Below are positions 4,756-26,004 of a DNA stretch of 32,000 bases, in pieces; within the stretch, counting starts at the first letter, position 1; the number at the start of each line of letters is the position of its first letter. The translations under genes were made by a program, and so were the position numbers. The notes under the pieces were generated by a model. It made no database searches and had not been told where the DNA came from. It saw only the letters and a list, made by a program, of their open reading frames with translations. The DNA lies in the NCBI GenBank assembly GCA_016205145.1, contig JACQJH010000002.1, forward strand, positions 300,001 to 332,000, written 5' to 3'. This stretch comes from Candidatus Iainarchaeum sp. (GTDB lineage: Archaea > Iainarchaeota > Iainarchaeia > Iainarchaeales > JACQJH01).

Positions 4756-4772
4756 AAAGACTTTTTTCTAGA
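4751..4772 (+). terminator. Hairpin with T6 overlapping the wHTH stop codon
   Basis: TCTAGAAA (4751-4758) pairs with TTTCTAGA (4765-4772). The T6 run is at 4762-4767. Confidence 0.55.
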
Positions 4773-4851
4773 ACACCAACCCCACCTCCTTTGCCGGAAA
4801 TGACGCTTTTGTCGGGCTGCCTTTCAGGTCCCTCTTTCCTCCTTTGCCACG

Positions 4852-4959: not shown

Positions 4960-5042
4960 ACTTAAATATTTCAGGGTTGCATGAATGCTCCCTGCTTCCG
5001 TCCCGGAGACTTTCACCACAACTAGCGTTTGCCATCCCCTAC

Positions 5043-5051
5043 TTTTAAATA
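5043..5051 (+). promoter_or_regulatory. TATA box for the HerA-like ATPase gene
   Basis: ttttaaata is centred about 28 nt upstream of the ATG at 5075. A second TATA-like ttaaatat lies at 4962-4969. Confidence 0.55.
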
Positions 5052-5074
5052 CGGTTTTGCCCTATTATTTGCCG

Positions 5075-8102: not shown

Positions 8103-8130
8103 GTGCAAGAGAAAATTCTCTTCGGAAATG

Positions 8131-8138
8131 TTTAAAAA
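8131..8138. promoter_or_regulatory. Shared bidirectional TATA box (tRNA-Val on minus, surface-protein gene on plus)
   Basis: tttaaaaa is centred about 27 nt upstream of the ATG at 8161 and about 32 nt upstream of the tRNA-Val 5' end at 8102. Confidence 0.55.
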
Positions 8139-8160
8139 AAGCAGATACGTATGCTTATTG

Positions 8161-9282
8161 ATGAGAAAGTTTTTTGCCATTGCCTTCGTGCTGTTTTTTG
8201 CCTCCGCTGTTTCGGCTTTGACTGTCGAGGCGCCTTCGCAGATTCCGGCTTATTCGAATTTCAGCGTAACCGCAAAGTTTGATTCCACGGACAATTTTGA
8301 CCAGGCAGTCATACAATTGGATGGTCAGGCGGTTGCAACCGTTTTTCCGACGGCAAACGGTTCTGGCACGATAAGTGAAAGCGACACTGATAACAGTAAA
8401 GTTTTGGGTGCGGCGCTCGCTGATGACGACAAGGCCTCAAAGGACGGGCTCAAGATAGTGGTGTCGCTTGCCGGCTTGTCCGCGGGCAGCCATAACGTCA
8501 AGGCAGTCGAGTTGAAGGCCGGTTCAACTGTCCAGGAGCAGCAGGCCAATATAAACTCGTTCCAGCCGCTTGACGAGTCGTTCAGGGCCGATGCCTTGCA
8601 GAAAATCGATTCGCTTTCCCAGAGCCTTGACGAGCAGAAAAGCAAGAATGATGCGCTGGCAGGCGAAAATTCCTCGCTCAAGTCAAAGGTTTCCGAACTG
8701 GAAAACTCTTTGACCCAGAAGCAGGCCGAGGTTGAAAGCATTTCAGGCAGTTTGCGCAATTTGCAGTCAAGGGTTTCAAGCACGGAAAGCGCGGTCGAGG
8801 AACAGAAAACCCAGAACGAGGAGACAAGCGCAAAGGTCGGCGAGCTTGAAGCGCGCACTGCCGGGCCGCTTGAAAACGTCGTGAAATTCTTGTCCGGACA
8901 GAACGATCAGCCGCAGGCTGAAACATCGGCAGCACAAATGGAAAAGGCCCCGGATGAAAATGCGGTGCAGAACGAGAACATTTTAACCGGCCTGGTCGGG
9001 GCGGCTGAAGCGAATTCGATGACAATAATCGGCCTGGTCGTGCTCATTGTCGTGTCGGTGCTTGCAATAATGCATTTCACGAAAAGGGAATCCATTTACG
9101 CGGACTCCGCAAACAAGGAGTGGGCAAACGACGACAATTTGGAGGATGCCCTGGCGGCGAAGGACAAGGAACTTGAAAGCCAGAATGCGCCCAAGAAATG
9201 GCATGCAAAGGAAGCCCCGGCAGAAGACGAGCAGAAGAAAGGCACGCTTGTCAGGCTCAGCGACATGTTCAAGAAAAAATAA
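8161..9282 (+). CDS. Secreted/anchored coiled-coil surface protein (hypothetical)
   Basis: 373 aa counted from the ATG at 8161. The ATG at 8128 in the track lies inside the TATA box. Features are a signal peptide (MRKFFAIAFVLFFASAVSA), a beta-rich domain, a Ser/Gln/Glu-rich heptad-like coiled coil, a C-terminal TM helix (MTIIGLVVLIVVSVLAIMHF) and a charged tail. Confidence 0.75.
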   Translation: MRKFFAIAFVLFFASAVSALTVEAPSQIPAYSNFSVTAKFDSTDNFDQAVIQLDGQAVATVFPTANGSGTISESDTDNSKVLGAALADDDKASKDGLKIVVSLAGLSAGSHNVKAVELKAGSTVQEQQANINSFQPLDESFRADALQKIDSLSQSLDEQKSKNDALAGENSSLKSKVSELENSLTQKQAEVESISGSLRNLQSRVSSTESAVEEQKTQNEETSAKVGELEARTAGPLENVVKFLSGQNDQPQAETSAAQMEKAPDENAVQNENILTGLVGAAEANSMTIIGLVVLIVVSVLAIMHFTKRESIYADSANKEWANDDNLEDALAAKDKELESQNAPKKWHAKEAPAEDEQKKGTLVRLSDMFKKK

Positions 9283-11540: not shown

Positions 11541-11571
11541 GGTTTAAAACCAAATTGCCGTTGCCAGGCAA
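11541..11571 (-). terminator. Hairpin plus T-rich tract after the giant operon
   Basis: The minus strand reads TTGCC-tggcaac-GGCAA followed by TTTGGTTTT, beginning 9 nt after the TGA stop at 11581-11583. Confidence 0.5.
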
Positions 11572-11580
11572 AATGCGAAT

Positions 11581-14500
11581 TCAGACCTTTACGCGGATAA
11601 TCGCGCCTTTCTTTTTGAGGTAGTTGTCAACTATGAACAGTATTCCGAGTTCTAGTATCGCGGCCACTATTCCGAATAGTATGCCCAGAACCAGGTTCAC
11701 TGCCAGCGGCGCAACAAAGAACACCAGCGCAAGCAGTGTCCTTATCAGCAGGCGCTTGTTTTCCTCGCGCCTGGATACAACCTTGAGCTCGAACAGGCGC
11801 TTGAACACAACGAATGCGAGAACCGTGTCAATGATGCTGAGCAGCAGCAACAGCAGTGCAAGCATCGGCGCTTCCGTTGTGGCCCTGCCTAAAATGATTT
11901 TCGCGGAATCCGAAATCGTGCCCACAAAAGAGGATAACAGCGCGATGCCGCTGAATTTGGGCCTTGCAATGAGGTCGTCCTTTTTCACTACAAGGCTGTA
12001 CTCGCCCTCTTCCTTGACAATGAACCGGGCTTTTCCGTCAGCCGCGGTCGTGAAGGACAAAGACTGGCTGCTAGGCGAAACAACGCTGATTGAGGCGTCC
12101 TGCGCGGGCTGGCCTTTGACGAAAACCGTTATTTCCTGCGCCTCGCCCACGGGCACGGTATTCTTCAGGTCAACTGCCAGGCCCTCCGAAGCCGGAAGCT
12201 CGCCGCAATCCTTGTTTGACAGGCACTCGGCTTCGCCGAAACCGTTAACCAGAACGCATGCGTTTTGCTGGCAGGCCGCATGCTTTCCCTCGCATTCCGA
12301 GTCGGAAGAACACAAATCGTCGCCTATGCCTGCGGCCAAAATGCACGCATTGTTGCTGCAGACCGTGTGCGAGCCTTCCGAGCACTGCACGCTTGCGGAG
12401 CAGGACAGGCCGTCGGTATCAAAGTTGCTTACGCCGTCCCAGTTTGCCGGCGCAGGCAGAACGCAGTTGTTGGAGAGGCACATGCCGAACTTTTTGGCAC
12501 AGCCCTCGTCGACCTGGCCGTTGCCGTTGTTGTCAACGCCGTCGCCGCAGATTTCGCCATTGTCCGCGATCACGCGTTCAAAGGAATTGTTGTTCTCGTT
12601 CAACTCCGCGACCTGGTTGTCCTTGTCAACAGTTATCAGCAGGATATGGGAATCCTCGAACTCGGGCGCCGCCTGGAACTGAATCACGCCGGAGAAATGC
12701 GCGGTTCCGTCATTCTGCCCGCCAGGAACCTCGACCGCTTCGGAGCCATAAATGCTTCCCAGGCCGTTGCCATAACCGCCATCATTGCCGCCGTCGCCCT
12801 GTGAACCCGCGCCCCAGCCAGCCCCCCAGCCGTTGCCTCCACCGCTCACAATGCGATTGCCGGAACCGGAAGTGTTGGTAGGGCCAACATTCAAAGCGCC
12901 GGACGCAGTGGCGTTACCGGGACCACCATTTTCGTTTGCAGGCCTGCATTCGCTGTTAGACCATTCGCCGCCTTGGGCTACGCACGCGGCTTTTTTGGCC
13001 TTCTTTTCCGGCGTTATCTCGTTTCTGAAATCGTCGCTTGTAAGAGTAATCTTTTCAAATCTTACCTCGGCATTCGGATCGGAAAGCTTTGTCCTCTCGT
13101 TGCCGGAAACCTTACGCTCTGTTACCACCCTTGGATTGAACTCACGCCTGTCAGTGTACAACCCGTTCGAGAAATCCGAAGTTATGGGCTTGCCATTATT
13201 TTTCACGGCAAACTCGACTGAGGCAGAAATTATTTTTCCATCCTCGAATTGCACATTGGTGACTTTTACATCGGAAATGAAGAGGTCGGGCGCATTCTCA
13301 GGCGCGCCGCAATCCGTGTCGGAAACGCAGGTCGCAGGCCCGGCGCCGTCAACCATGACACAGGCCTTTGTGACCACATCGCATGCCGCATGCTTGTTCA
13401 CGCATTGGCTGTCGGCGGAGCACTGGTTCACGCCGGGGCCTATGCCTATCTGGCACGAGTCGTTGCTGCACACCGAATGCGTGTTGCTTGAACAATCGTC
13501 ATTGGAATGGCAGGTCGCAGGCCCGGCGCCGTCAACCAGAACGCATGCCTGGTTGACGCATGCGGCATGCTTGTCCGTGCAATCATTGTTAGCGGAGCAC
13601 TGGTTTGCGCCAGGGCCGAAAACCTGGACGCATGCATTGTTTGAGCAAACCGCATGTTTTTCCGTGGGGTCAGCGCACTGGGGATTCGACAGGCATTCGG
13701 CTTCGCCGGAACCATCAACCAAAACGCACGCGTTGCCCTGGCACGAGGCGTGCTTGCCCGTGCATTCGGCCCCGGAATCGCACTGGTTTCCGTCTTCGCC
13801 GATGACCCTGATGCAGGCATCATTGCTGCACACCGAATGCGAGTTTGAAGTGCAGGAGGAGTTTTGCATGCAAAGCTGGCCTTCTCCGGCAAGCTGGCAG
13901 GCGCTGAAGTCCGCGCTGCACCTTCCGACAGGAGCGGGCCCGCAGTCAGTGTCAGAATAGCATTCCGAAATGCCGGTGCCGGGAACAAGCGTGCAGGCAT
14001 TGTTTTCACAGACTTGCTTCTTGCCTGTGCAGTCGGCGTCCCTGCTGCAAAGGTCTTCGCCTTCACCCGCAGCGACAATGCAGGCAGAATTCTGGCAGGC
14101 AAGGTGGGTCACGTCGACCTCGCAGGAAGCATTCGTTATGCAGGATGCGCCGGTGCCGCCGGCAACGCATGCTTTGGAATCCGGGTCGCATTTTGCGCCC
14201 GCGCACGCGTTGTTTGATTCGCAGTCGGAGTCCGCGCAGTCAATCCTGCCGTCTGCATCGTCGTCAACGCCGTTCGTGCACTTTTCCTGCACAACGCAGA
14301 CATTGCCGCCGGCGGACCTTTCAAACACAATCTGCCCCGTGTTGTCCGTTTCAAGCAACTCGGATATTTTTTGCGTGTAGTCCGCGAAAACGCTGAAAAT
14401 CGTCCTTGACACAACCGAGTTTGCGGCAACGCTGAACGAAATGCTGCCGGAGTTCGCAACGCATTTGCCGATGCAGCACAGGCCTGCGTTGCTTGACTGC

Positions 14501-16188
14501 ACGGGCGTGCCGTCGCAGTTCTGCTTCGCGGAGCAGATTGTGCCGCCCTGCGTGGCGCACGGGTCAGGCAAAACCTTGACATTGATTTTAAGGAAATCCG
14601 CCAAAGAAGGGTCCTTGTCGGATTTGGATGCCACGAGATACGAATAATAGCCTGCCTTGCCGGGTGCCTTCACATTGACTGAAACACTTGAGTCCGATGC
14701 ATATGCGCCGCACGTCGCGGCGGCCAGGGAAACGTTCGCCGAGGAAATCGAAAGATTCGGCGCGGAAGCGCTGAGCGAAAAGGACTGCGCGTCGAACGAC
14801 GGGTTCGTAAGCAGCAATGGCACTGCCTGCCCCGCATTCCTTGCCATGGTCAAAAAGACCTCTTTAGAATTGTTGGAGGAAATTATTTTCGGAATTGGAA
14901 GGGCCATTGCACTCTTTGAAAAAGAATTCTGCAGGTAGCCGGTCATCTGCGGGCCCCTTACCGGCCAGTCGTATTTTGCGGAATCAAATTCAGCTGAAGC
15001 CACAATTGAAGTGGTGAAAAACAGGTCGGTTGTTGAAGGTTCGACAAACTGCACCGTCGTTTCCTGGCCTTTGGGCAGGGAAACGCTTTTTGTCCGCACC
15101 GCATTCATTGCGCCGCCCTTGAAGAAGTAAAGCTTTACCAGCAGGGGGAATGATTCAGTGAAATCCATGTCGCCGGTGTTCTTCACTTTGACGTTGAAAG
15201 TGAAGGGTTTGCCGGTGACGTACCAGAAATTGTCGGTTGGATGGGCCGCCACGATTATTGCAAAAGGCCCGCTTTTGACAGGAAAACCCTGGTTGCCGGC
15301 ATAATAAACCGTGTTCTGCACCGGCAATTGAGTCGTGCAATCCTCGAAATATTCTAAATGCATGTCATACAGTCTCACTGTGCCCGGATTCTTTGCAACG
15401 AAATTTTCAGTGAAAGCCTTTGACTCATCAGGCTGGAGGGAAAAAAACTGCGACGGGTGGCCTTCAACAAAAGCCGCGTTTGTCTCAACGTCGAAATATG
15501 CGCTCGGAGTCCTTTTGATGCAGACCGGCATGTTGCCATTGTTCTTGTAGCTCATGGTGTATGAAACATTGCTTCCCAAATTGAGCGGGCTACCGGCGGC
15601 TACAACGCTGCCTCCGGAGGAAACAACCATGTTTTTTTGAATCAGGGCGTATTCCGCGCCCTGCGTCGTGGTGTTATAGCACAGATTTGCGCCAACCGCG
15701 CCGTTGTTGTTGCCGCTGAAAGAAGCATAGCTTATGGCCTTAATGGTCTTCGGATTCATCGAGGGCGCAAAATATTTTGAATAGACAATCGTGCATTCGA
15801 ACGAATAGGTTTTAGTTTCAGCCGCGCAGAAGCGCTGGTTGGGAATGTCGCGCGTGTTTGGCTTCGAACAGTCAAGCAACAACGGGCCCGGCGACCCCCA
15901 TGTAAAATAAATCCTCGCGTTTGCGGTGGGATCCGAACCAATGTTCTGGACCGTTTCATCAATCCTCACGCGCGTGTTTTCGCCTATTGCAAAACCAGAC
16001 GGGCACAATGCCTTTCCCTGGCTTGGATTGCTTATGTCCGACAAGACAGTGCCGGCGAACGGCCCGTCCAAGGCGGTCATTTTGAGACCCAATATTTTCA
16101 TTTGGGGGTCTGCAAAGGCAGTGCCCGCCATGAAAAGCGCGAATAAAAGGAACGATGCCATTGCAGCCTGCCCGCGATTCCAAGCCAT
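11581..16188 (-). CDS. Giant secreted, C-terminally membrane-anchored cysteine-rich surface protein (1535 aa): CARDB-like domains, H-C4 repeat arrays, acidic DGxD motifs
   Basis: The signal peptide is MAWNRGQAAMASFLLFALFMAGTAFA|DPQ. The N-terminal ~630 aa is beta-rich with CARDB-like strands (VQNIGSD, YKNNGNM, VKNTGDM). About 10 H-C4 units span aa 664-960 and 2-3 more span aa 1236-1327. A CARDB-like domain (aa 966-1209) carries a Gly/Asn-rich insert. A Big/CarboxypepD_reg-like domain is followed by 3 predicted C-terminal TM helices. The ATG shares one nt with the upstream stop (TGATG). Confidence 0.9.
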   Translation of the reverse strand: MAWNRGQAAMASFLLFALFMAGTAFADPQMKILGLKMTALDGPFAGTVLSDISNPSQGKALCPSGFAIGENTRVRIDETVQNIGSDPTANARIYFTWGSPGPLLLDCSKPNTRDIPNQRFCAAETKTYSFECTIVYSKYFAPSMNPKTIKAISYASFSGNNNGAVGANLCYNTTTQGAEYALIQKNMVVSSGGSVVAAGSPLNLGSNVSYTMSYKNNGNMPVCIKRTPSAYFDVETNAAFVEGHPSQFFSLQPDESKAFTENFVAKNPGTVRLYDMHLEYFEDCTTQLPVQNTVYYAGNQGFPVKSGPFAIIVAAHPTDNFWYVTGKPFTFNVKVKNTGDMDFTESFPLLVKLYFFKGGAMNAVRTKSVSLPKGQETTVQFVEPSTTDLFFTTSIVASAEFDSAKYDWPVRGPQMTGYLQNSFSKSAMALPIPKIISSNNSKEVFLTMARNAGQAVPLLLTNPSFDAQSFSLSASAPNLSISSANVSLAAATCGAYASDSSVSVNVKAPGKAGYYSYLVASKSDKDPSLADFLKINVKVLPDPCATQGGTICSAKQNCDGTPVQSSNAGLCCIGKCVANSGSISFSVAANSVVSRTIFSVFADYTQKISELLETDNTGQIVFERSAGGNVCVVQEKCTNGVDDDADGRIDCADSDCESNNACAGAKCDPDSKACVAGGTGASCITNASCEVDVTHLACQNSACIVAAGEGEDLCSRDADCTGKKQVCENNACTLVPGTGISECYSDTDCGPAPVGRCSADFSACQLAGEGQLCMQNSSCTSNSHSVCSNDACIRVIGEDGNQCDSGAECTGKHASCQGNACVLVDGSGEAECLSNPQCADPTEKHAVCSNNACVQVFGPGANQCSANNDCTDKHAACVNQACVLVDGAGPATCHSNDDCSSNTHSVCSNDSCQIGIGPGVNQCSADSQCVNKHAACDVVTKACVMVDGAGPATCVSDTDCGAPENAPDLFISDVKVTNVQFEDGKIISASVEFAVKNNGKPITSDFSNGLYTDRREFNPRVVTERKVSGNERTKLSDPNAEVRFEKITLTSDDFRNEITPEKKAKKAACVAQGGEWSNSECRPANENGGPGNATASGALNVGPTNTSGSGNRIVSGGGNGWGAGWGAGSQGDGGNDGGYGNGLGSIYGSEAVEVPGGQNDGTAHFSGVIQFQAAPEFEDSHILLITVDKDNQVAELNENNNSFERVIADNGEICGDGVDNNGNGQVDEGCAKKFGMCLSNNCVLPAPANWDGVSNFDTDGLSCSASVQCSEGSHTVCSNNACILAAGIGDDLCSSDSECEGKHAACQQNACVLVNGFGEAECLSNKDCGELPASEGLAVDLKNTVPVGEAQEITVFVKGQPAQDASISVVSPSSQSLSFTTAADGKARFIVKEEGEYSLVVKKDDLIARPKFSGIALLSSFVGTISDSAKIILGRATTEAPMLALLLLLLSIIDTVLAFVVFKRLFELKVVSRREENKRLLIRTLLALVFFVAPLAVNLVLGILFGIVAAILELGILFIVDNYLKKKGAIIRVKV
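12208..12549 (-). repeat. Second H-C4 repeat block plus DGVDNNGNGQVDEGC motif within the 1535-aa gene
   Basis: aa 1214-1327: ICGDGVDNNGNGQVDEGC, then the units HTVCSNNACILAAGIGDDLCSSDSECEGK and HAACQQNACVLVNGFGEAECLSNKDC. Confidence 0.8.
13309..14280 (-). repeat. Tandem array of about 10 H-x2-C-x4-C-x10-C-x5-C units (~30 aa each, A/B alternating) within the 1535-aa gene
   Basis: aa 637-960. At the DNA level there is a 183-nt periodicity, with a 28-nt exact identity at 13328-13355 and 13511-13538. Confidence 0.85.
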
Positions 16189-18845
16189 CAGTTTCCGCCT
16201 CCGACTTTCAACTGCTTCGCCTGCTCTGGCGGACCGACAACGTCGCCGCGGTACAATCCCACGTCAACAAGCTGTTTTAGAACAGTCCTGCCGGCATTCG
16301 TTATCGTCGCGGTAATGGAAATGTTTTCATTCAGCGCATAGCACGTCCTTGGAGTGGAAGCCTTTGCAAGCAGGTCAGGCAGATCCGAAACATCAAGGCT
16401 TGCTTCATGCGAATTGTTGTATTCGTTGTTCTCTTCAATCGCCTTCGGCGCATCCGCCACAACCGAAACAATGACTGTGCCGAACCAGCTTGAAGTGTTC
16501 ACTTCAAACCTCATGATTTTCTGTTCGCCCGGCGTCAGGGAAACGAATGCCTCGGACAGCATTGAACCGAAGCCGCTTTGCCCTTCGAACAAAACCACGC
16601 CAACGTTCTTTGCAGTGTCGGAACCGAGGTTTTTCACTGCGGCTTCAAGCGTCACCGTTGAATTCGATGGCACTGAAATCCTGCCGCTCACGGCCGGGAA
16701 ATCCGGGGCATAAATGCTTGTCACGGTCAGGTCGGCGCATTCGTCTGTAACGCCGTCCTGGTCGTCGTCAACGCCGTTGCCGCAGATTTCCTTGAAAACA
16801 ACGTTATTGCAGCCTTCGTCGACCTCGCCGTTGCCGTTGTTGTCGACTCCGTCGTCGCAAATTTCCGACAGGCAATCGGCAGAGCACGCCTCGCCAATGT
16901 TGCAGACGCCGTCGCCGCAGACCGGGACAGGGCAATCATCATTGACCACGCACTCGGGCGGCCCGGGACCCGCGGCAAGCGCGCAAGCGCCGCTCACGCA
17001 CGCGGCGTGCTTCTTAATACAGTCGTTGTCAATAAAACACTGGTCTTCGCCAGGTCCTGCGGCTACAACGCACGCTTTATTGCCGCAAATAAAATGCGTG
17101 TCGCCCAGGCAGCCGGTTGCCGTGCTGCAAAGCTCGCCGTTTCCCGAGGTCGTGCACGCGCCCTGCGGATCGCATTTGCCGATCTGCACGGGATTGCACT
17201 GGCTGTCGGAAATGCATTTGGGTTCACCGGCGCCGCTGACGAGCTTGCACGCGTTGTTGACGCATTCCGTGTGGGTCTCAATGCAGTCGTTGTCAGAACC
17301 GCACAAGTCCGGACCGGGACCGGCCGCCTGGACACAAGTGCTGGGGCTTGTCGGACTGCACACCGCATGGGTTTCCGGGGGGTTGCACTGCAGGTTTATA
17401 TGGCATTTTGCGGGCCCCGCGCCGTCGGCAAGCGCGCAGGCTCCGCCAATGCAATCCGCATGCTTTGCGGTGCAGTCGGCGTTCGAAGAGCACTGGTTTA
17501 CGCCTTCACCGTCAACCTGAACGCACGCGCCGGAATCGCAAATTGCATGTTTGGGCACAACGCATTGTTCGTCGCCAAAGCAGGTCGAATCGCCTTTTCC
17601 GTCGACAAGCGCGCACGCATTGTTCTGGCACTCCATGTGCTTGTTCTTGCATTCTAAATCGGATGAGCACTTGTTCCCGCCGGTTCCCGCGACCTGCACG
17701 CAAGCATCATCAAGGCACACCGCGTGCGTTTCAGAACTGCGGCACTGTTCGCTGTTCTGGCATCTCGGATAGCCGGGCGCGCTTACAAGCACGCAGGCAT
17801 TCCCGACGCAACCCGAATAGACTCCCGGGCCGCACGTCGAATTGGAAGAACAAAGGCTGTCATCCGAACCGGAAACTGACAGGCACGCCTCGCTCTGACA
17901 TATCGCGTGATCCGCGGGTTTGCACTGCGCGTCAACCTGGCAGGTCGATGGACCGGGGCCGTCGACAAGCTCGCATGCATCGTTCACGCAGGCCATGTGC
18001 TTCTTTTTGCAGATTGGCGGGTTCGACGAGCATTCGTCGTCACCGGTTCCGAAAACCGGTATGCAAGCATCCCTGCTGCATGTGGAATGCATGGGCAGGA
18101 TGCACGAACTTCCGGGAGTGCAGAGCACGTTGCCCTCGCCTGACAGGGAACAGGTCTGTGTCACGTAGTCGCAGGTGTACTCAACGGGCTTGCATTCGTT
18201 GTCGGAAAGGCACTTTGCGGGTCCCGTGCCATCAACCAGAGAGCACGTTTGGTTCACGCATTCGGCGTGCTTGCCCTTGCACTGGGCATCGGAAGTGCAC
18301 TGCCATGGCGGGCCCGGTCCCGCGACAATCTCGCACTTGTCATCGGAGCAAACGGAATGGGTTGTGGGAATATCGCATTCCTCTGCCTTGCTGCAAAGCG
18401 CGCCCGTTCCCGTTGTCGAACAGGCTTTATTCTCAGCATCGCATCGTCCTGTCGCGCACGGCGGCAATTGTGCCGCCGCGGCCTCCGACTGGGCGCTTTC
18501 CCTGCCAAGCGAATCGACCGCGGACACATAATATGCATAGGAACCGCCCGCCTTGACATCCGTATCAATGAAGGAAGTTCCGGAAACCATTGACGCAATC
18601 TTGACCAGCGGCCCTTCCGCCACGGCCTTGTAAACGTTGAATGAAAGGCTTCCCGTAATGGCTCGTCCGCTGACGGTTTCCGTGGGCGCGGCCCAGAGAA
18701 CTTCAACCGCCTTTGCTTCCCCGCAAAGGAAACCATAGTATGGCGGGCCCGCATCCGGGTTCACCGGTGCCAGCACGGACGGCAGAAGCGCAAGCAAAGC
18801 GAAAAGCGCAAAAACCGCGCGCGCGTCATGGAAAACGGATTTCAT
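16188..18845 (-). CDS. Secreted cysteine-rich protein (885 aa): FN3-like domain, ~17 H-C4 units, acidic DGxD motifs, two CARDB-like domains
   Basis: The signal peptide is MKSVFHDARAVFALFALLALLPSVLA. The FN3-like segment is VEVLWAAPTE...FNVYKA...SFIDTDVKAGGSYAYYVSAVDSLGRES. H-C4 units span aa 130-637. VCGDGVCNIGEACSADC, ICDDGVDNNGNGEVDEGC and ICGNGVDDDQDGVTDEC follow. The CARDB-like domains begin at DLTVTSIYAP... and at DLPDLLAK.... No TM anchor is present. Confidence 0.9.
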   Translation of the reverse strand: MKSVFHDARAVFALFALLALLPSVLAPVNPDAGPPYYGFLCGEAKAVEVLWAAPTETVSGRAITGSLSFNVYKAVAEGPLVKIASMVSGTSFIDTDVKAGGSYAYYVSAVDSLGRESAQSEAAAAQLPPCATGRCDAENKACSTTGTGALCSKAEECDIPTTHSVCSDDKCEIVAGPGPPWQCTSDAQCKGKHAECVNQTCSLVDGTGPAKCLSDNECKPVEYTCDYVTQTCSLSGEGNVLCTPGSSCILPMHSTCSRDACIPVFGTGDDECSSNPPICKKKHMACVNDACELVDGPGPSTCQVDAQCKPADHAICQSEACLSVSGSDDSLCSSNSTCGPGVYSGCVGNACVLVSAPGYPRCQNSEQCRSSETHAVCLDDACVQVAGTGGNKCSSDLECKNKHMECQNNACALVDGKGDSTCFGDEQCVVPKHAICDSGACVQVDGEGVNQCSSNADCTAKHADCIGGACALADGAGPAKCHINLQCNPPETHAVCSPTSPSTCVQAAGPGPDLCGSDNDCIETHTECVNNACKLVSGAGEPKCISDSQCNPVQIGKCDPQGACTTSGNGELCSTATGCLGDTHFICGNKACVVAAGPGEDQCFIDNDCIKKHAACVSGACALAAGPGPPECVVNDDCPVPVCGDGVCNIGEACSADCLSEICDDGVDNNGNGEVDEGCNNVVFKEICGNGVDDDQDGVTDECADLTVTSIYAPDFPAVSGRISVPSNSTVTLEAAVKNLGSDTAKNVGVVLFEGQSGFGSMLSEAFVSLTPGEQKIMRFEVNTSSWFGTVIVSVVADAPKAIEENNEYNNSHEASLDVSDLPDLLAKASTPRTCYALNENISITATITNAGRTVLKQLVDVGLYRGDVVGPPEQAKQLKVGGGN
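16737..18458 (-). repeat. Tandem array of ~17 H-C4 units plus terminal acidic Cys motifs within the 885-aa gene
   Basis: aa 130-703. 13 of the 16 clear units start with H-x2-C. A-type units (..C.QV.G.G.NQC..) alternate with B-type units (..AC.LVDG.GP..C..). Confidence 0.85.
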
Positions 18846-18854
18846 CCTGAAACC

Positions 18855-19928
18855 TTACTTTTTCTTTGTCGAAATAATGTCGTTAATCGTGCAGCCGCCG
18901 TACCTTTGCGCAATGCACGCGTTGTTGTAAACCTTGAGCTTGCAGAAAACCGGTGCGAAACCCGCAGAACAGCCCGTTTCGCCGATCTGGGCAGCTACAG
19001 ACTGCTGGACCGGCCTTGTCTTGCCGCCGGCTTTCACAAGCGTTTCAAGCTCGAACCTGTAAAGGCCCAGTTGTTTGGAATCAAATGTGAAAGTGAAATT
19101 GTCGGATACCGGTGCAGCCTCGGTCTTGCCGTCCGGCAGGGTAACTTTCACGTTAAAGCCTTCAATGTCGCTGGCTGCCCTTGGGTCGGCTTCGCCAAGA
19201 AGCGGCCCGTAAGCGCCGACTTCGCTGAAGCCGGATGCAATGCAGCCGTTCTGGAGAATGACTTTCTTGAACAATGTGCAGGAGTCGGTTGAACCGCCCG
19301 CGCATTCCACAACGTTTGCATTCAAAGTGTCCTTCGGGGCCTCGGCAGCGGAACCCATGACTACAGCAGAGTATTTTCCGTTGATTTTGTAGAGGCCATT
19401 GGGCAAAGTCGAATAATACAGGTTTTGGGAAGCGGAATAATTGCACTTGCCGCCGAAATCCTCGAGAATCACGCCGGTCGGCGCCAATGCCGAATGCTTT
19501 GATTCTTCTGAAGTGGTGCAGGAAAGCCTGCCGCCGAAATCATAGCAGACGACACCCGCCACGCCCGCAAACACAAAGCCCTTGCCTGTAAGTTTTCCTT
19601 TCTGGCCCTGCTCCGCTCCAACAAGGATTGAGCCGCTGAAACTGCCGCAGCCGTTCTCGCAGGTCGAACTCCCGTCAGGGTTTGTTTTCTTGCCGTTGCA
19701 GAACATGCCTGCGGCCTCGCATTCGTTCGGCGGGGGATTTTCCTTGCATGTCACGCTGCAGGACTGCTCGTATTTCGCGCAATAGTCGCCGCCGTAACTG
19801 CCGGAAACGACTTGCGTGCATTGCGTTGTGCATTCAGTCTTGCATTCCCCGGTGCCCTGCGCTGAAACAGCGAAAAAAAGCGCGCCGAAAAAGCCTATTG
19901 TCAAAGCCAAAGCCAGTGTCCTTTTCAT
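18855..19928 (-). CDS. Secreted hypothetical protein with Cys-rich N-terminal region (357 aa)
   Basis: The signal peptide is MKRTLALALTIGFFGALFFAVSAQG. A Cys cluster follows (ECKTECTTQCTQ...CAKYEQSCSVTCKENPPPNECEAAGMFCNG...CENGC), then a beta-rich body. A 9-nt gap separates it from the next gene. No family is recognised. Confidence 0.85.
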   Translation of the reverse strand: MKRTLALALTIGFFGALFFAVSAQGTGECKTECTTQCTQVVSGSYGGDYCAKYEQSCSVTCKENPPPNECEAAGMFCNGKKTNPDGSSTCENGCGSFSGSILVGAEQGQKGKLTGKGFVFAGVAGVVCYDFGGRLSCTTSEESKHSALAPTGVILEDFGGKCNYSASQNLYYSTLPNGLYKINGKYSAVVMGSAAEAPKDTLNANVVECAGGSTDSCTLFKKVILQNGCIASGFSEVGAYGPLLGEADPRAASDIEGFNVKVTLPDGKTEAAPVSDNFTFTFDSKQLGLYRFELETLVKAGGKTRPVQQSVAAQIGETGCSAGFAPVFCKLKVYNNACIAQRYGGCTINDIISTKKK

Positions 19929-19974
19929 AAAGCCAACTCCAATTGTCCATTACATCGGATAAGCATTAAAAACC

Positions 19975-20703
19975 TCATCCGCTCCTCGGGGGAAAAACCG
20001 TTCCAACGTCTGTCGGCGGCTTGGGCGGGTCGGCGCAGCCTGAAGCATTAAATGTGCATGACGCATTGCATGCAAGGGTTCCGCCGCTGAAGCCGAGCGA
20101 TGCGCAGGTCTTGCCGTTGAGGTTGCTGCCCTCGCATTCCTCGCCGGGTTCAAGCTTGTTGTTGCCGCATACATAGTTTGCGCAGCCGCTCTTGTCGAGT
20201 TTGCAGGAAGCCGAGCATTTGAGGGTTCCGCCGTCAAAGCCGAATCCTGTGCAGGTTTGCGTGCCAAAATCGGTTTTGTCGCATTCCTCCCCAATTTCTT
20301 TCACGCCATTGCCGCAGACCGCGTCGGTGCAGACATTGTTCTTGCACAGTTTTCCTGCCAGGCAGTCGGCATCGGAACTGCAGAATTTCACCGTGCCGGA
20401 GTCAAGGGCACAGCCTTCCGAAGATTTGTCGCTTTCAACGCCGCCGGAAAGGGCGGTTATCTGATAACAGTATTCCGTGCCGCTGGTTGTTGCAGTGTCA
20501 GCATAGCTTGTCTCAACAGTTGAACCGATCGGGGAACTGCCGACAGAGGGTTTTGACCGGTAAATGTTGTATGACAATGGGCCTGAAATCTGCGAGCCAT
20601 CCGTGTTCTGCGTGGGCGCCTGCCATTGGATTATGACCGAAGCCGCGACAAGCGGCAGGACAAGCAGCAGGACAATTCCGATGAAAATTTTTTTACCCGC
20701 CAT
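19975..20703 (-). CDS. Secreted protein: FN3-like domain plus two CGNG-x-E-x-GEEC cysteine-rich repeats (DUF4215 / Myxococcus-type Cys-rich repeat-like)
   Basis: 242 aa counted from the ATG at 20703. The track uses the GTG at 20712, which would overlap the upstream stop. The signal peptide is MAGKKIFIGIVLLLVLPLVAA. The FN3-like segment is IIQWQAPTQNTDGSQISGPLSYNIYRS...TSYADT...GTEYCYQITALSGGVESDKS. The two repeats are VCGNGVKEIGEECDKTDFGTQTCTGFGFDGGTLKCSASCKLDKSGC and VCGNNKLEPGEECEGSNLNGKTCASLGFSGGTLACNASCTFNASGC. Confidence 0.85.
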   Translation of the reverse strand: MAGKKIFIGIVLLLVLPLVAASVIIQWQAPTQNTDGSQISGPLSYNIYRSKPSVGSSPIGSTVETSYADTATTSGTEYCYQITALSGGVESDKSSEGCALDSGTVKFCSSDADCLAGKLCKNNVCTDAVCGNGVKEIGEECDKTDFGTQTCTGFGFDGGTLKCSASCKLDKSGCANYVCGNNKLEPGEECEGSNLNGKTCASLGFSGGTLACNASCTFNASGCADPPKPPTDVGTVFPPRSG

Positions 20704-20708
20704 TGTTT

Positions 20709-22439
20709 TCACCCCGTGTTTTTGCAGCGCTCCGAAATTTTAAGGTTTTTGCAGTTCGGGGACGTGAGATTTGACTTGCAGGCATCCCACCACGTGTCAC
20801 AGAATTCCTTCTGGCTTGTCGTGCCATCAAGCGTGGGCGGCCTCGGCTTGGGCGCGCCCTTGAAATTAAAATTATTTTCCGGCGAGAAGTTTGTCATGAA
20901 AGTGGTCAGTTTGCCTAATGACAGATAGGTCATCTGGCCTGCCGCCGACCATTTTGGCTTGGCGGAGGAAATCCCGAGGGGCGGCGAAGGTATGGGCGTG
21001 CTCGCATAGCAGCTGCCGTACAATGATGAAACACCGCCTGGCAGGCTGCATGAAACGGGCCAGAATTGCTCTTCGCCCGCCTGCCAGGAAAGGTTAAAAT
21101 GGATTTTCAGGGTGTTTTGTGCCGGAATCCCGTCCGGATACGGGAATTCTGCTTGCAGTCTGCGCCCTCCCTGAATTTCACCCAAGGTTACCGTTGAACC
21201 GTTAGCCGGCCCCGGAAGGTTTGGCGCGGCGTAATACACTTGAACTGTTTTTTCGCTCCAAGGCCCGCAGTCCGAGAACGTTGAGCCGGTTTTTGTCTTG
21301 CATGCCCTGCCTTTGAAGGCGTAGGGGCCGATTGCCGGAAAGCCCCGTGAAAAAACCCCGGAACGCGGAATTGTTTCGGAGATGCTGGTTGTGGCGTTCA
21401 CGCGCGAAACAGGATAAGTGTAGCCCGGATAAATGTAGTTCAGCGGAGTGAGCACGAATTCAAAATACTTTGCCGCCTGCGAAACCGTGGCGCTTATTTG
21501 GATGCCGTCGGAGAGGTCTTCGGTTGCGCCGGGCGAAGTCATGGTCAGGGCAGCTCCAGTGCAGTCCTTTGAACAGTTGGCCTGGGTTTCGCCTGATTCG
21601 CAGGCATTGTTGCCGCAGACCGAGGAAATGCAGGCGCCGTTTGAACAGCCGAGCGGGCAGACAGTCCCGATTTCCGAATAACACTGGGCGTCCGGCGGAA
21701 GGTAACATGACTTCAAATTCCCGTTCAGGCAGTAACTTGTGCCCGGAGTGCAGGCATCGGTGCAGGTCTTGCACTGCGCGTTCGCACAGCCTTTCGTGCA
21801 TGTTTCGGTTGTGACCCATTTCTTGCAGCCGTTCACAATCCGGCATTCCTGGAGGTTGCTGCCGGAGCACTGGTAGGAAGTTGCAATGGAACACTCGTCA
21901 GTGCATGATTGCGGGACGCACGCGCCAGCGGAGCAGCCGTTGGAGCATTCTTCCACTTTTTCCGTGAGGCCGTATATGCTGACGCCCGGTGCCCGCGGCG
22001 GATTGTAATTCTTGTGGCATGCGTACAGGTCTCCGCTAACGCACGCCTTTTCCCCTTCAACATTGCAGCGATTGCCAACCAAAGCCCCGTCTTCACACCA
22101 CCAGTCTAATGCGCCGATCGCAAACTGCAGTGCCCTTCCATCCGGCGCGCAAAAACCTTCTTCAATCGAATGCGCATTCTGACAACGATCATTAACATTA
22201 CCATTAAACGGCGGATTGATCTGGCCTTTGGTAAAAAGGCTCGGCCCAAAAGGGTCGTAATACCACGTAACCGGTGCCCCGCTGGCGTCAATCGCGTTAA
22301 AAGGTTCAAATTCAGACGCGGTCCGCGTGGCGGATACAACAGTGTTATCGCTGTCAGTGCATGTCGCGGCGGCGGCTTCCGCCACAAAAAAGGACAGTAA
22401 CAGGATAGCAATCGCCCAAACAACATTTCTGCAATTCAT
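20709..22439 (-). CDS. Secreted cysteine-rich protein (576 aa), three Cys-knot-like modules plus CGNNxCExGE motif
   Basis: The signal peptide is MNCRNVVWAIAILLLSFFVAEAAAA. A CTDSDNT start motif follows. There are three modules of the form C..G.L..C....(W)....C..GC..G/A.C, then VCGNNACESGETQANCSKDC and a beta-rich C-terminal half. The ATG overlaps the upstream stop (ATGA). Confidence 0.88.
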   Translation of the reverse strand: MNCRNVVWAIAILLLSFFVAEAAAATCTDSDNTVVSATRTASEFEPFNAIDASGAPVTWYYDPFGPSLFTKGQINPPFNGNVNDRCQNAHSIEEGFCAPDGRALQFAIGALDWWCEDGALVGNRCNVEGEKACVSGDLYACHKNYNPPRAPGVSIYGLTEKVEECSNGCSAGACVPQSCTDECSIATSYQCSGSNLQECRIVNGCKKWVTTETCTKGCANAQCKTCTDACTPGTSYCLNGNLKSCYLPPDAQCYSEIGTVCPLGCSNGACISSVCGNNACESGETQANCSKDCTGAALTMTSPGATEDLSDGIQISATVSQAAKYFEFVLTPLNYIYPGYTYPVSRVNATTSISETIPRSGVFSRGFPAIGPYAFKGRACKTKTGSTFSDCGPWSEKTVQVYYAAPNLPGPANGSTVTLGEIQGGRRLQAEFPYPDGIPAQNTLKIHFNLSWQAGEEQFWPVSCSLPGGVSSLYGSCYASTPIPSPPLGISSAKPKWSAAGQMTYLSLGKLTTFMTNFSPENNFNFKGAPKPRPPTLDGTTSQKEFCDTWWDACKSNLTSPNCKNLKISERCKNTG

Positions 22440-23227
22440 TTCCTTTTACCCCGTTTAATTTGTGCTTTTCCCTTAATTTCTTTTTTTGCTTTCGGCTTTG
22501 CCCCCGGCTTCAATGGTTTTGCAGCCGGCCCGGGCTTTTGCGCCTGGCTTTGCGTGAAAGGCATTGCCATGGACGGCTGAGGCTCCGTTGCCGGCAGCAG
22601 GCGCGAATCGCCTTGCATTGTTTTTTCGCTTCCGCCGCCTGCGTGGGTTTTGGGTTTCCTGCTTATCATGAACAGGAAGCCGACCGCAGCCATAAACAGC
22701 GCGCCGAGCACGGCGATGGTCAGGTAGAATTCAAGCTGGCTCACCATTGGTTTCGGGAAAGGCGACGGCTTGGGCGCCTGCACCGGGCCCGGAGCAGGAG
22801 CCTGCGGCACTGCAGAACGCGGCCTTTCCGCTGGCAGCGGGGGTTCGGAGAATTGGTTGAAGTAGTTCACGATTGCGGGAACAGTGTTTTTTGCCGTGAT
22901 TTTTATTTCATAGTTTTTTTGCGGTTCCGCCGCGATTTCAACCGTGTACGTTTCCTGTTCGGGCGTGAATTCCGGTATGCGCAGCAATACTGTGCCGTTG
23001 ACGGAAATTTTGACGTCCAAGAGCTTTTTGACCGAAGTGTCAACCGAAAATTGGAGCACCAGCACCGCGCCATTCGAACCGTCTTTCGGCGCGACTGAAA
23101 CAATGGTTATCGGCTGTTGCGGAACGGAATTTTGCGCCGGCGCATTCGCGTCCGGGGAGGATTGCGCGAACACGGCGGAAGCAAGCATGGCAAAAAACAG
23201 CACTGCTATGGTTTTACCCCATCGCAA
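22436..23227 (-). CDS. Type-I membrane protein: signal peptide, Ig-like ectodomain, Pro-rich linker, TM helix, Lys-rich tail (first gene of the operon)
   Basis: 263 aa. The TTG start at 23227 is the only start that preserves the signal peptide MRWGKTIAVLFFAMLASAVFA|QSS. The TM helix is FYLTIAVLGALFMAAVGFLFMI and the tail is KPKAKKEIKGKAQIKRGKRK. Confidence 0.8.
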   Translation of the reverse strand: MRWGKTIAVLFFAMLASAVFAQSSPDANAPAQNSVPQQPITIVSVAPKDGSNGAVLVLQFSVDTSVKKLLDVKISVNGTVLLRIPEFTPEQETYTVEIAAEPQKNYEIKITAKNTVPAIVNYFNQFSEPPLPAERPRSAVPQAPAPGPVQAPKPSPFPKPMVSQLEFYLTIAVLGALFMAAVGFLFMISRKPKTHAGGGSEKTMQGDSRLLPATEPQPSMAMPFTQSQAQKPGPAAKPLKPGAKPKAKKEIKGKAQIKRGKRK

Positions 23228-23251
23228 AAATTACCCCCGCCTGCAAACCAC

Positions 23252-23259
23252 TTATATGT
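23252..23259 (-). promoter_or_regulatory. TATA box for the six-gene surface operon
   Basis: The plus strand reads ttatatgt (minus strand acatataa), centred about 28 nt upstream of the start at 23227. A second TATA-like tatttaaa lies at 23273-23280. Confidence 0.55.
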
Positions 23260-23374
23260 TAATTCATTTTCGTATTTAAATGTTCCATCCGCCAAAACCG
23301 CCGGCATTGTTTTGGCGTGGGCGGAAAAAAACGGGAAAACATGGAATACGATTTTAATCAAAACAGGGAATACC

Positions 23375-23384
23375 ATTTTAATCT
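23375..23384 (+). promoter_or_regulatory. TATA box for the GT-C-like gene (attttaatc duplicated at 23351 and 23375)
   Basis: attttaatct is centred about 27 nt upstream of the ATG at 23406. Confidence 0.5.
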
Positions 23385-23405
23385 AGTTTTGCGTTTTTGT
23401 ATGCT

Positions 23406-24980
23406 ATGGACCGGAGCTTTCAGGCGCTTGTTGCATTGTCATTTTTGCTTGCCGGCATTGCCACAAGCGGCTTCATTTACATTGCCAATCCGCTTGCTTT
23501 GCACCAGGACTCGTTCGACCATCTGGCGCTCGCAAAAATAATCAGGGACGACGGAAAGCTCGTATACCGGTACCCTTACGGCGATGGCTACAGGGATGAG
23601 AATCCCCTGCTTAACCCTGAACCGGGTTTCCATGTCTGGCTCGCCTCGCTTCTTGTCGTGACAAACCTGCATGAAACCCTGCTGGGCGCAATCCTGCCGT
23701 CAATCATCACTTTTCTCCTGGCAACCGGCACTTTTGTTTTCGCGAGAAGGCTTTTCGGAAGCGGTTTGGCGGGCGTTTTCTGCGCAATTGCGGTTGTCGG
23801 CATGAGGAGCAGCAGGCTTTTTTTGGGTCCCCAGTTCCTGGTGCCCATGGCAGTCGGCACGGCGTTGATTCCGTTCAACCTGTTTTTTTTCATTAAAGCC
23901 TGGAAGCAGAAACGCTTCATTGTCCTTTCAGGCATCACTTTTTTTGCCAGCGCCCTTATCCACCCGGTTTATGCGATAATCCTTTTGCCGGCGTTTGCAT
24001 TGCTGATGCTGTCCGACCTGAAAAAAGTGAAGCGGAATGCCGTGATTTTTCTGGGCGGGGGCGCAATCCTGCTTTACCTGTCAAGGTTTTTCGCCACGTT
24101 TCTGAAAATCAATCCAAACCAGGAATGGGTTCCGTTCCTTTTGGATTTGCTGTCAAGGCTGCGGATTCCGCCCTGGAGGCCGGAGGAAAGGCTGCTTGAA
24201 ATTTCAGGGTATTCAAACCTGCTTGTCGTGGGCCTGGCCGGGGCCGGCGTTTGCGCAGTTGCCCTGATTGTCCTGGCAAAAGTGCTGGCCGCATTGTCAA
24301 AAAAGGGCAACAGGCTTGCCGGGCTGTACAATGAAAAGATGCCCGCCATTTGCCTGTATGCTGTTTTCATGGCGGCATTGTTTTTGGAGTTCAGGTTGAG
24401 CGGCTTCTCTTTCCTTGCGCCGGGAGCGCGCGTCTACCAGGCCGTGGGGTATTTCGTGATGCTTTTCGCAGGGTTTGGGCTGTATGCTTTGTTCAGGTTT
24501 GCCGAAAGCTTCGGCAGCATGAAAGAGGAGGGCCCTGCACTGAGCCTTGTTTCCGTGGCATTTGCCATAGTCCTCGCGTTCGCGGTTTTTTCAACCGCTA
24601 TTTCAATGGATGCGGAAAAGCTTGGCTCGAAACCGGGGCCAATCGACCTGGAATTTTTCAGCTGGGTTGACAAAAACGTGCCGAAAGAAGGGAACATTTA
24701 CGTCTTTCCCGTGCTCGGCAAGGCGTTTTACCTTGAAACCCTGCGCAGGCCAAGCATAACCGAGGCCTCAAGGATGGGCCAGCCGCCGGAAACGATCCCC
24801 GAACTGTTCGATTTCCCGAAAGCGGATTGCGCGCAAAAGGAAAAGACCATGAAAAAATATTCGCTTGCGTTCGCGCATTCCTATGAGGAAATAGACTGCG
24901 AAAATTTCGGAAAGGTTTATTCCTACCTCAACCAGGGCCTTGAACAGAACTTCTTTTACCAGCTGCAGGCACAGGGCTGA
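23406..24980 (+). CDS. Polytopic membrane protein, possibly a GT-C-fold glycosyltransferase
   Basis: 524 aa counted from the ATG at 23406. The track uses the TTG at 23397. There are about 12 TM helices, an acidic first loop (HQDSFDHLALAKIIRDDGKLVYRYPYGDGYRDENP) and a soluble C-terminal domain. This architecture resembles ArnT/PMT/AglB-type enzymes, but no diagnostic motif (for example WWDYG) was seen. Confidence 0.7.
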   Translation: MDRSFQALVALSFLLAGIATSGFIYIANPLALHQDSFDHLALAKIIRDDGKLVYRYPYGDGYRDENPLLNPEPGFHVWLASLLVVTNLHETLLGAILPSIITFLLATGTFVFARRLFGSGLAGVFCAIAVVGMRSSRLFLGPQFLVPMAVGTALIPFNLFFFIKAWKQKRFIVLSGITFFASALIHPVYAIILLPAFALLMLSDLKKVKRNAVIFLGGGAILLYLSRFFATFLKINPNQEWVPFLLDLLSRLRIPPWRPEERLLEISGYSNLLVVGLAGAGVCAVALIVLAKVLAALSKKGNRLAGLYNEKMPAICLYAVFMAALFLEFRLSGFSFLAPGARVYQAVGYFVMLFAGFGLYALFRFAESFGSMKEEGPALSLVSVAFAIVLAFAVFSTAISMDAEKLGSKPGPIDLEFFSWVDKNVPKEGNIYVFPVLGKAFYLETLRRPSITEASRMGQPPETIPELFDFPKADCAQKEKTMKKYSLAFAHSYEEIDCENFGKVYSYLNQGLEQNFFYQLQAQG

Positions 24981-25896: not shown

Positions 25897-25918
25897 GACA
25901 CAAGATTGAGGGCTTGCA

Positions 25919-25928
25919 GTTTAAAAGT
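25919..25928 (-). promoter_or_regulatory. TATA box for the GNAT-like gene
   Basis: The plus strand reads gtttaaaagt, centred about 27 nt from the ATG at 25896 (minus strand). Confidence 0.5.
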
Positions 25929-25972
25929 TTTCGGAATGCCGGAGGGCACAGGGCCTGAATGCCGCCAATCCG

Positions 25973-25982
25973 CTTTTTATTG
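25973..25982 (+). promoter_or_regulatory. TATA box for the AsnB/Dph6 fusion gene
   Basis: ctttttattg is centred about 27 nt upstream of the ATG at 26005. Confidence 0.5.
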
Positions 25983-26004
25983 CCTTTTTTTGACAAATCC
26001 CTTT

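Follow-up and report, generated by a model that had tools for sequence, protein, structure and literature searches.

An operon-like cluster of exported, mostly cysteine-rich proteins in a DPANN archaeon and the H-C4 repeat module that it carries

Do six adjacent genes for exported proteins in a small-genome archaeon encode one conserved surface apparatus, or are they a surface-protein gene cluster of an ordinary kind with unusual content? The question is raised by a stretch of 32,000 nucleotides (nt) from Candidatus Iainarchaeum sp. (assembly GCA_016205145.1, contig JACQJH010000002.1, positions 300,001 to 332,000), the whole of which is referred to below as the window, and by six minus-strand genes within it, named g1 to g6 in the order in which they are read. 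An earlier note, made from the letters alone, had proposed that their products form an undescribed multi-subunit surface structure. The reading favoured here, with a probability of about 0.6, is a native, lineage-specific operon of disulfide-rich cell-surface proteins, in which arrays of a short repeat in g5 and g6, the H-C4 module, would serve as extended spacers bearing beta-sandwich domains, likely for adhesion or as an envelope structure. The operon would then be the ordinary kind of cluster; it is the repeat module, rather than this set of genes, that is new and of general scope.

Sequence, predicted fold and carriers of the H-C4 module

The module has the form H-x2-C-x4-C-x4-G-x-G-x3-C-x5-C and spans about 30 residues. 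A regular expression recovered 28 copies (16 in g5 and 12 in g6, 21 of them beginning with His) and two or three more fall outside the expression, in agreement with the roughly 27 to 30 copies counted in the earlier note. Modules of type 'A', H[AS]VC..xAC.xV.G.G..QC.....C, are followed by a three-residue linker containing Lys, those of type 'B', HA.C.N.AC.LVDG.G...C.S...C, by a longer linker containing Pro, and a His-less 'C' module sometimes precedes an A-B pair. The His, the eight Cys and the Gly residues are invariant in the 12 double modules of g5 and g6; in a set of 53 double modules drawn from different proteins, no exception occurs at either His, at any of the eight Cys or at two of the Gly, and hardly any at the remaining two Gly. 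In a broader set of 712 modules from 150 proteins, the four Cys are conserved at ~100%, the His at 91% and the two Gly at 93–95%, with Asp or Asn (D/N) at three further positions.

The repeat corresponds to no family in the databases searched: Pfam returned zero families at E ≤ 10 over the arrays (g5 amino acids (aa) 130-645, g6 aa 640-965), NCBIfam gave no match over them, and the best hit of a module profile among PDB sequences had E = 8, so that the module is, as the earlier note held, unrecognised. DUF7107, Dickkopf_N and Myxo_Cys_RPT were considered as its identity and rejected, since no hidden Markov model (HMM) of these families matches over the arrays. Within an incomplete coverage of the literature on cysteine-rich surface proteins and adhesion in the candidate phyla radiation (CPR) and DPANN and on the Micrarchaeota S-layer, no description of the repeat was found. 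An AlphaFold2 (AF2) model of four modules (g6 residues 782-903, 52-row alignment) reached a predicted local distance difference test (pLDDT) score of 88.2 and a predicted template-modelling (pTM) score of 0.51, the latter being expected for an extended chain with uncertain angles between modules. Each modelled module consists of two strands forming a beta-hairpin, a loop and a short helix, and to judge from sequence and model rather than from coordinates it is most likely locked by two disulfides. Foldseek, which is insensitive for small elongated Cys-rich repeats, placed the four-module model no closer than E = 5.4 in PDB and E = 1.1 in BFVD.

An exhaustive search of 1.84 billion representative proteins with a profile of 12 A-B pairs yielded 674 proteins at E ≤ 1e-3, 295 at E ≤ 1e-10 and 55 at E ≤ 1e-30; a word-index protein search with the 53-row module alignment offered 17 candidates, none of which matched. 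At the nucleotide level, a hand-made degenerate DNA pattern for one module, which matches the window 10 times against 0 expected, found at least 120 loci among species-representative genomes, 87 of them confirmed by HMM. By their deposited labels, these 87 confirmed loci fall to CPR/Patescibacteria (37), DPANN (32), unclassified archaea (5), Methanosarcinales (2) and other bacteria (11), so that 69 of the 87 (~80%) are labelled CPR or DPANN. The arrays closest to those of the window, among the matches listed, come from Micrarchaeota (L069 with 414 bits, L071 with 346 bits, and L038). The nearest-neighbour labels of the arrays are intermixed between CPR and DPANN, which is only suggestive of exchange because the units compared are just 60 residues long; a published precedent for lateral transfer between the two groups is RuBisCO (PMC6389311).

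Carriers of the module have signal peptides and varied C-terminal signals, including LPxTG-like motifs (e.g. LPSTG, IPKTGPE) and transmembrane (TM) anchors. Among 63 carriers searched with Pfam, the associated domains were PKD (9), DsbA/Thioredoxin_4 (5), DUF4215 (4), VWA (2) and several Ig-like families. Many apparently bacterial carriers, possibly of CPR, terminate in W[RK]EI[SP]PF (P0019, P0037, P0059, P0069, P0091, P0092, P0112 and others) and other carriers in 'GDTGPAAVAVIGAGAAAG..RRKK'; both ends may be unrecognised sorting or anchoring signals. Archaeal-type carriers (P0007, P0008, P0014, P0097 and the L071 protein at 4132-7458) end in an '[IVL]PET..W' motif, a TM helix and a basic tail, which looks like an undescribed archaeosortase-type sorting signal and is absent from g6.

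The neighbourhoods of the carriers are varied. In the DPANN loci L034, L005 and L074, genes for module proteins are grouped, in one direction, with genes for exported Cys-rich proteins, the gene set being a different one in each case. Three short genes with archaeal class III (pilin-like) N-termini (…GQAGLEYLVTYGWAIL…) adjoin a Micrarchaeota H-C4 gene at L038 1413-3302. In L071 (Micrarchaeota CG1_02_55_22), a membrane-anchored thioredoxin-fold protein with the motif CDGC (2426-3430, minus strand) is encoded two genes downstream of the 1108-aa H-C4 protein (4132-7458, minus strand), a 231-aa open reading frame (ORF) lying between them. Protein families enriched in CPR include DsbA/MdbA-like proteins, often encoded adjacent to VKOR (bioRxiv 10.1101/335083), an enrichment that fits oxidative folding of Cys-rich proteins.

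Gene layout, export signals and genomic setting

Listing and translating the ORFs recovered the six genes (Table 1), and the five junctions are exactly those described in the earlier note: an ATGA overlap between g1 and g2, a gap of 5 nt between g2 and g3 (a GTGA overlap if g3 starts at its GTG), gaps of 46 nt before g4 and 9 nt before g5, and a TGATG overlap between g5 and g6. GGGGT/GGAGG motifs resembling Shine-Dalgarno (SD) sequences stand 8-15 nt before the starts of g1, g2, g3 (ATG 20703) and g6. Public gene callers place the start of g1 at an ATG further in, for a product of 250 aa. The evidence favours the TTG start, which has an SD-like motif, yields a proper signal peptide and adds 13 residues that are kept in the relative L004 described below. 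Cys makes up 5-9% of g2 to g6 and is absent from g1, and the other genes of the window encode 0-15 Cys each. Four of the proteins (g2, g3, g5 and g6) are acidic, with isoelectric points of 4.4-5.3.

Table 1. Positions of the six genes, their parts and the candidate regulatory signals in the window
Feature	Position	Strand	Description
Candidate promoter block	23250-23288	minus	39 nt; two TATA-like boxes
Upstream TATA-like box	23273-23280	minus	TTTAAATA
Downstream TATA-like box	23252-23259	minus	ACATATAA; box of the earlier note
SD-like motif GGGGGT	23233-23238	minus	5 nt upstream of g1 TTG; kept in L004
g1	22436-23227	minus	263 aa, TTG start, no Cys; signal peptide, ~90-aa beta-rich ectodomain, Pro-rich linker, TM helix, Lys/Pro-rich cytoplasmic tail
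g1 TM helix	22664-22735	minus	aa 165-188, by hydropathy
g2	20709-22439	minus	576 aa, 39 Cys; signal peptide, variable N-terminal domain, Cys-rich ~45-aa repeats, CGNNACESGE...C motif, ~290-aa C-terminal region
g3	19975-20703	minus	242 aa from ATG (245 aa from GTG 20712), 18 Cys; signal peptide, FN3-like domain, one Cys knot, two CGNG...GEEC units
g3 FN3-like domain	20404-20634	minus	
g4	18855-19928	minus	357 aa, 20 Cys; signal peptide, rest unannotated; near-orphan
g5	16188-18845	minus	885 aa, 79 Cys; signal peptide, no anchor
g5 FN3-like domain	18462-18728	minus	likeness by eye only
g5 H-C4 array	16932-18452	minus	17 modules, aa 132-638; alternating A-B super-repeat with occasional His-less 'C' modules
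g5 acidic region	16701-16928	minus	CGDGVC motif and two acidic double-disulfide repeats
g5 CARDB	16404-16679	minus	aa 723-814; g5 also has a second beta-sandwich region
g6	11581-16188	minus	1535 aa, 75 Cys; signal peptide, ~540-aa beta-rich N-terminal region
g6 acidic repeat	14203-14301	minus	
g6 H-C4 array 1	13309-14190	minus	~10 modules, aa 667-960
g6 CARDB	12577-12681	minus	aa 1170-1204, partial match; g6 also has a Gly-rich stretch
g6 H-C4 array 2	12205-12369	minus	one A-B pair, aa 1274-1328, with a degenerate module before it
g6 Ig-like domain	11980-12162	minus	
g6 C-terminal TM helices	11629-11868	minus	three, aa ~1441-1463 and 1478-1520, by hydropathy
Hairpin and T-tract	11546-11571	minus	5-bp hairpin (TTGCC/GGCAA) then T-tract, past g6 stop; candidate archaeal terminator
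T-tract	11546-11554	minus	TTTGGTTTT

The organism, from groundwater, is a small-genome archaeon, as had been supposed, and belongs to DPANN: a metagenome-assembled genome (MAG) labelled 'Candidatus Diapherotrites archaeon' carries, on a contig of 637 kb, proteins identical to g4 (HY394_04810) and g5 (HY394_04805), and the flanking genes are archaeal in kind (a diphthamide-synthase fusion, a HerA-like ATPase, Ham1, Vut_1, MscS and TatD). The GC content at third codon positions (GC3) is 0.61-0.66 in the six genes and 0.60-0.71 in the housekeeping flanks, an agreement that indicates a native operon and rules out recent horizontal acquisition; the raised overall GC sits in second codon positions and therefore reflects amino-acid composition, not foreign origin. 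With their tight spacing, the SD-like motifs of most genes and this GC3, g1 to g6 look like one native operon, and their geometry points to co-transcription and translational coupling.

Upstream of g1, the earlier note had seen a single TATA box. That box is present, accompanied by a second, upstream one, and the 39-nt block that holds both is 100% identical in L004, amid an otherwise diverged intergenic region, and is a plausible promoter. The GGGGGT motif before the TTG start implies a leadered mRNA, which would favour the upstream box. Of the terminator proposed past g6, the T-tract is there, and the hairpin is only 5 bp long and no more stable than shuffled sequence (z = -0.41). Archaeal terminators act through oligo-T tracts, and the T-tract is the more credible termination signal of the two. 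In the intergenic region upstream of the divergent 527-aa gene described below, at ~23340-23390, lies a near-perfect tandem duplication of 24 nt (GATTAAAATGGTATTCCCTGTTTT / GATTAAAATCGTATTCCATGTTTT), of which L004 has a single copy.

All six N-termini show a basic n-region, a hydrophobic stretch and an AxA-like site of Sec type, and further hydrophobic segments occur only in g1 and g6; both the signal-peptide-like starts and the confinement of membrane anchors to the first and last products, as claimed in the earlier note, are borne out by hydropathy (the former also by inspection). The C-terminal 60 residues were free of sortase or archaeosortase signals (LPxTG, PGF-CTERM, PEF-CTERM) in every one of the six proteins, and inspection of the N-termini found no class III (prepilin) signal, that is, no [KR]-G/A site before the hydrophobic stretch. 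The operon holds no PilB/FlaI ATPase or PilC/FlaJ platform gene and no other ATPase, chaperone, sortase or platform gene; the nearest ATPase, HerA-like, is encoded outside it on the other strand (4985-6370). Mature g2, g3 and g4 contain even numbers of Cys (38, 18 and 20), as expected for fully disulfide-bonded proteins. The numbers are odd in g5 (79) and g6 (75), leaving room for one free thiol or intermolecular disulfide in each, and an isolated Cys of g5, Cys41, is conserved in L004.

CARDB (PF07705; cut-off 22.7 bits) is the sole domain to exceed a curated threshold, with 42.7 bits in g5 and 36.2 bits in g6. The domain vocabulary of the earlier note thus holds for CARDB; fn3 (PF00041) in g3 (16.6 bits, E = 0.009) lies under its 25-bit cut-off, the acidic double-disulfide repeat (NF033662; cut-off 41 bits) falls short in both g6 (34.8 bits, E = 1e-8) and g5 (20 bits), and DUF4215 (PF13948) was undetected at E ≤ 0.1 in the six proteins. 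Below threshold, the FN3-like region of g3 also matches RGI_lyase (20.8 bits) and the CbhB FN3 region, its single knot matches DUF7107, Dickkopf_N and Myxo_Cys_RPT, g6 aa 1343-1403 matches CarboxypepD_reg and DUF4198, and g1 has weak Pfam matches only. The NCBIfam matches include no comparable myxobacterial disulfide-repeat model for the CGNG..GEEC units, and neither g2 nor g4 matches anything in Pfam, NCBIfam, PHROG or PDB sequences; an AF2 model of g4 from a two-sequence alignment was unusable (pLDDT 35). PHROG returned an FN3-type match in g3 (E = 3e-4) and one weak match in g1 to a family of unknown function, on which ground a viral origin was ruled out; a multihaem cytochrome was likewise ruled out, the six proteins containing zero CxxCH haem-binding motifs. 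In keeping with the earlier note, none of the six is assigned by an HMM of Pfam, NCBIfam or PHROG to an S-layer or pilus system that has been characterised.

On the plus strand of the window at 30637-31875, a protein of 412 aa has an N-terminal TM helix and two CxxC motifs (CVAC and CETC) in thioredoxin-like contexts; as a motif-based lead, it may be a thiol-disulfide oxidoreductase active outside the cytoplasm, and folding of the Cys-rich operon products could be its task. It was rejected as a DsbA homolog (no Pfam, PHROG or PDB match) and shares no BLAST similarity with the thioredoxin-like gene of L071. Divergent from the operon (23397-24980, plus strand) is a 527-aa multi-pass membrane protein found at the same position in L002, L003 and L004 (85% identity in the last), with no Pfam or PHROG match; its first loop (HQDSFDHLALAK) recalls GT-C glycosyltransferases, and it may modify the surface proteins. 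A 384-aa protein at 8128-9282 (plus strand) combines a signal peptide, a beta-rich domain, a long coiled coil with a weak match to the crescentin rod, a C-terminal TM helix and a charged tail; it is a surface protein of stalk-like, membrane-anchored build and possibly belongs to the envelope. A 727-aa protein (25906-28089, plus strand) has an unusual architecture, a glutamine amidotransferase and asparagine-synthase module fused to a Diphthami_syn_2 PP-loop domain.

What the six products may form

On the favoured reading, all six products would be exported through the Sec pathway to the surface of the DPANN cell, where g1, as a type I protein with a basic cytoplasmic tail, and g6, by its three C-terminal helices, would be held in the membrane and g2 to g5 would be released or peripherally attached. 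Both g5 and g6 would be elongated proteins resembling beads on a string, with cores of 17 and ~13 tandem modules. The arrays, probably protease-resistant spacers, would hold the FN3-like, CARDB, Ig-like and g6 N-terminal domains tens of nanometres off the membrane, and the role would most likely be adhesion to cells or substrates, or envelope structure, in an episymbiotic lifestyle.

Some points weigh against this reading. The signal peptides of g1 to g6 were called by hydropathy and inspection. Since g1, g2, g4 and the N-terminal region of g6 are without informative homologs, the adhesion role rests on domain vocabulary and lifestyle. A pTM of just 0.51 leaves rigidity between modules in doubt, and the conserved Cys and His of the module could bind metal instead of forming disulfides. 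In addition, the taxonomic proportions of the module loci come from a sample, and the MAG taxon labels were used as deposited.

That the six products form one multi-subunit structure, with g1 and g6 as membrane feet and g2 to g5 as stalk or tip for host attachment, is the alternative closest to the earlier note, and we consider it unlikely. Anchors restricted to the first and last genes, together with the tight coupling, suggest stoichiometric co-production, and the odd Cys numbers of g5 and g6 would allow an intermolecular disulfide. Conserved synteny was the test that the earlier note itself had set. The locus recurs in three Logan assemblies of the same organism (SRR12113383-85), and the order g1-g2-g3-g4-g5 recurs in one relative, L004 (ENA ERZ4903072), at ~80% amino-acid identity (78% for g1, 84% for g3, 81% for g4 and 67% for the N-terminus of g5). 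At that level a shared order is expected by descent alone and is weak evidence. The g2 homolog of L004 (917 aa) is 76% identical over the C-terminal 400 aa, and where g2 has its first ~178 residues it carries another, longer N-terminal part that includes Flg_new_2 domains; such modular turnover is typical of adhesins, and the swap of this N-terminal third better fits an independent, fast-evolving adhesin than a fixed subunit. Among 5.8 billion proteins, g4 has one homolog besides itself (81% identity).

When g1, g2, g4, the g5 termini and three non-array segments of g6 were compared by tblastn with the at least 120 module-bearing loci, only g3-type matches emerged, and no homologs of g1, g2, g4, the g6 N-terminus or the g5 C-terminus were present in the 120 loci listed. 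Scans of JGI metagenomes with g1 and the g2 C-terminus, two peptide patterns each and of low sensitivity, returned nothing. Generic FN3/Cys units of g3 do match module-bearing contigs of other genomes (E = 1e-12 to 1e-3), so that CGNG...GEEC units co-occur with H-C4 elsewhere, and the module proteins P0009, P0013 and P0015 contain CGDG...EECDDGN repeats; this hints weakly that the two kinds of unit act jointly. With gene order kept only within the organism and in L004, a near-orphan g4 and no assembly genes, positive evidence for the apparatus of the earlier note was not obtained, and the evidence speaks against the six-gene set being a conserved system.

About equally doubtful is an S-layer or envelope lattice in which an anchored stalk would support a non-anchored canopy, by analogy with SlaA and SlaB. 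Large, acidic, exported beta-sandwich proteins are indeed co-encoded with membrane-anchored partners here, and DPANN such as Micrarchaeota do have S-layers (bioRxiv 10.1101/2021.04.28.441871). Against a lattice, no S-layer family model is among the Pfam and NCBIfam matches of the six proteins, and the density of N-glycosylation sequons (0.4-1.0 per 100 aa) is unremarkable, being equal to that of cytoplasmic neighbours. Six different proteins also exceed what known lattices use, and long Cys-knot arrays are not a known S-layer feature. No more probable than either of these is a bolder version of the first, in which H-C4 would be a new disulfide- or metal-locked fold and would define a surface toolkit common to both domains and exchanged between CPR bacteria and DPANN archaea, and g1 to g6 would build a stalk-like organelle for host attachment with g5 tethered covalently to g6 through the unpaired Cys.

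Improbable, and clearly more so than the lattice, is the view that the modules bind metal (Zn, Fe, Cu or Ca) for extracellular capture, storage or redox. One invariant His, four invariant Cys and D/N at three positions per module would suit it, as would the acidic MopE-like repeats that adjoin the arrays and the origin of many carriers, going by MAG titles, in anoxic groundwater, where disulfides are less favoured. The six proteins contain no CxxC or CxxCH motifs, however, the spacings C-x4-C and C-x5-C are not those of typical zinc knuckles as generally known, the DsbA-type fusions and nearby thioredoxin-like genes point to oxidative folding, and the carriers are adhesin-like (PKD, VWA, LPxTG). 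Finally, that the genes are unrelated co-directional neighbours without a functional unit, as the lack of detectable mutual relationship among four of the six proteins and a 46-nt gap that could hold an internal promoter might suggest, is very improbable given two start/stop overlaps, three short gaps, an order conserved in L004, and six exported products of which five are Cys-rich.

Significance and comparison with known systems

How ultra-small, host-dependent DPANN and CPR attach to other cells is an open question, and most of their surface proteins are unannotated. The H-C4 repeat offers a concrete handle on it: its consensus is strict, its fold is predicted with confidence and its carriers number in the hundreds. 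Once defined as a family, it would allow long parts of many giant proteins now called 'hypothetical' to be annotated, point out candidate adhesins for cryo-electron tomography or antibody work and add another case in which gene exchange between CPR and DPANN can be tested. It is a useful discovery at the level of a domain of unknown function (DUF), not a categorically new system; the operon is a lineage-specific example, whose interest stays local unless assembly of its products is demonstrated.

Among short Cys-spaced units of secreted proteins, the module most resembles DUF7107 (PF23416), Dickkopf_N (PF04706) and Myxo_Cys_RPT (TIGR04201). The spacing of the g3 knot, C-x5-C-x5/6-C-x4-C, equals that of H-C4 read across a module boundary (C3, C4, next C1, C2), whereas H-C4 alone has the invariant His and the G-x-G loop, and DUF7107 matches anywhere in only 3 of the 63 carriers. 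DUF4215 and the NF033662/MopE-like acidic repeats flank H-C4 in the same proteins (DUF4215 in the 4 carriers counted above) and are different units from it.

In overall plan, g5 and g6 resemble bacterial and archaeal adhesins with tandem Ig-like, PKD or CARDB domains in having a signal peptide, a putative stalk array and putative distal binding domains, and g6 also in its C-terminal anchor. They differ in the building units of the stalk, ~30-residue Cys knots in place of ~90-residue beta-sandwiches, and in the g6 anchor, which consists of three TM helices rather than a sortase or archaeosortase signal. SlaA and SlaB of Sulfolobales are co-transcribed exported envelope proteins, one anchored and one not. 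The operon shares this logic of anchored and non-anchored partners but no sequence or HMM similarity; it has six genes instead of two, and its Cys-rich arrays are without counterpart there. The nanohaloarchaeal SPEARE proteins are giant, lineage-specific surface proteins of host-dependent DPANN with protease and nuclease-like domains, proposed to act in host contact. Like them, the largest products of the operon are large, lineage-specific DPANN surface proteins, but no protease or nuclease-like domain was detected in g1 to g6 with Pfam or NCBIfam.

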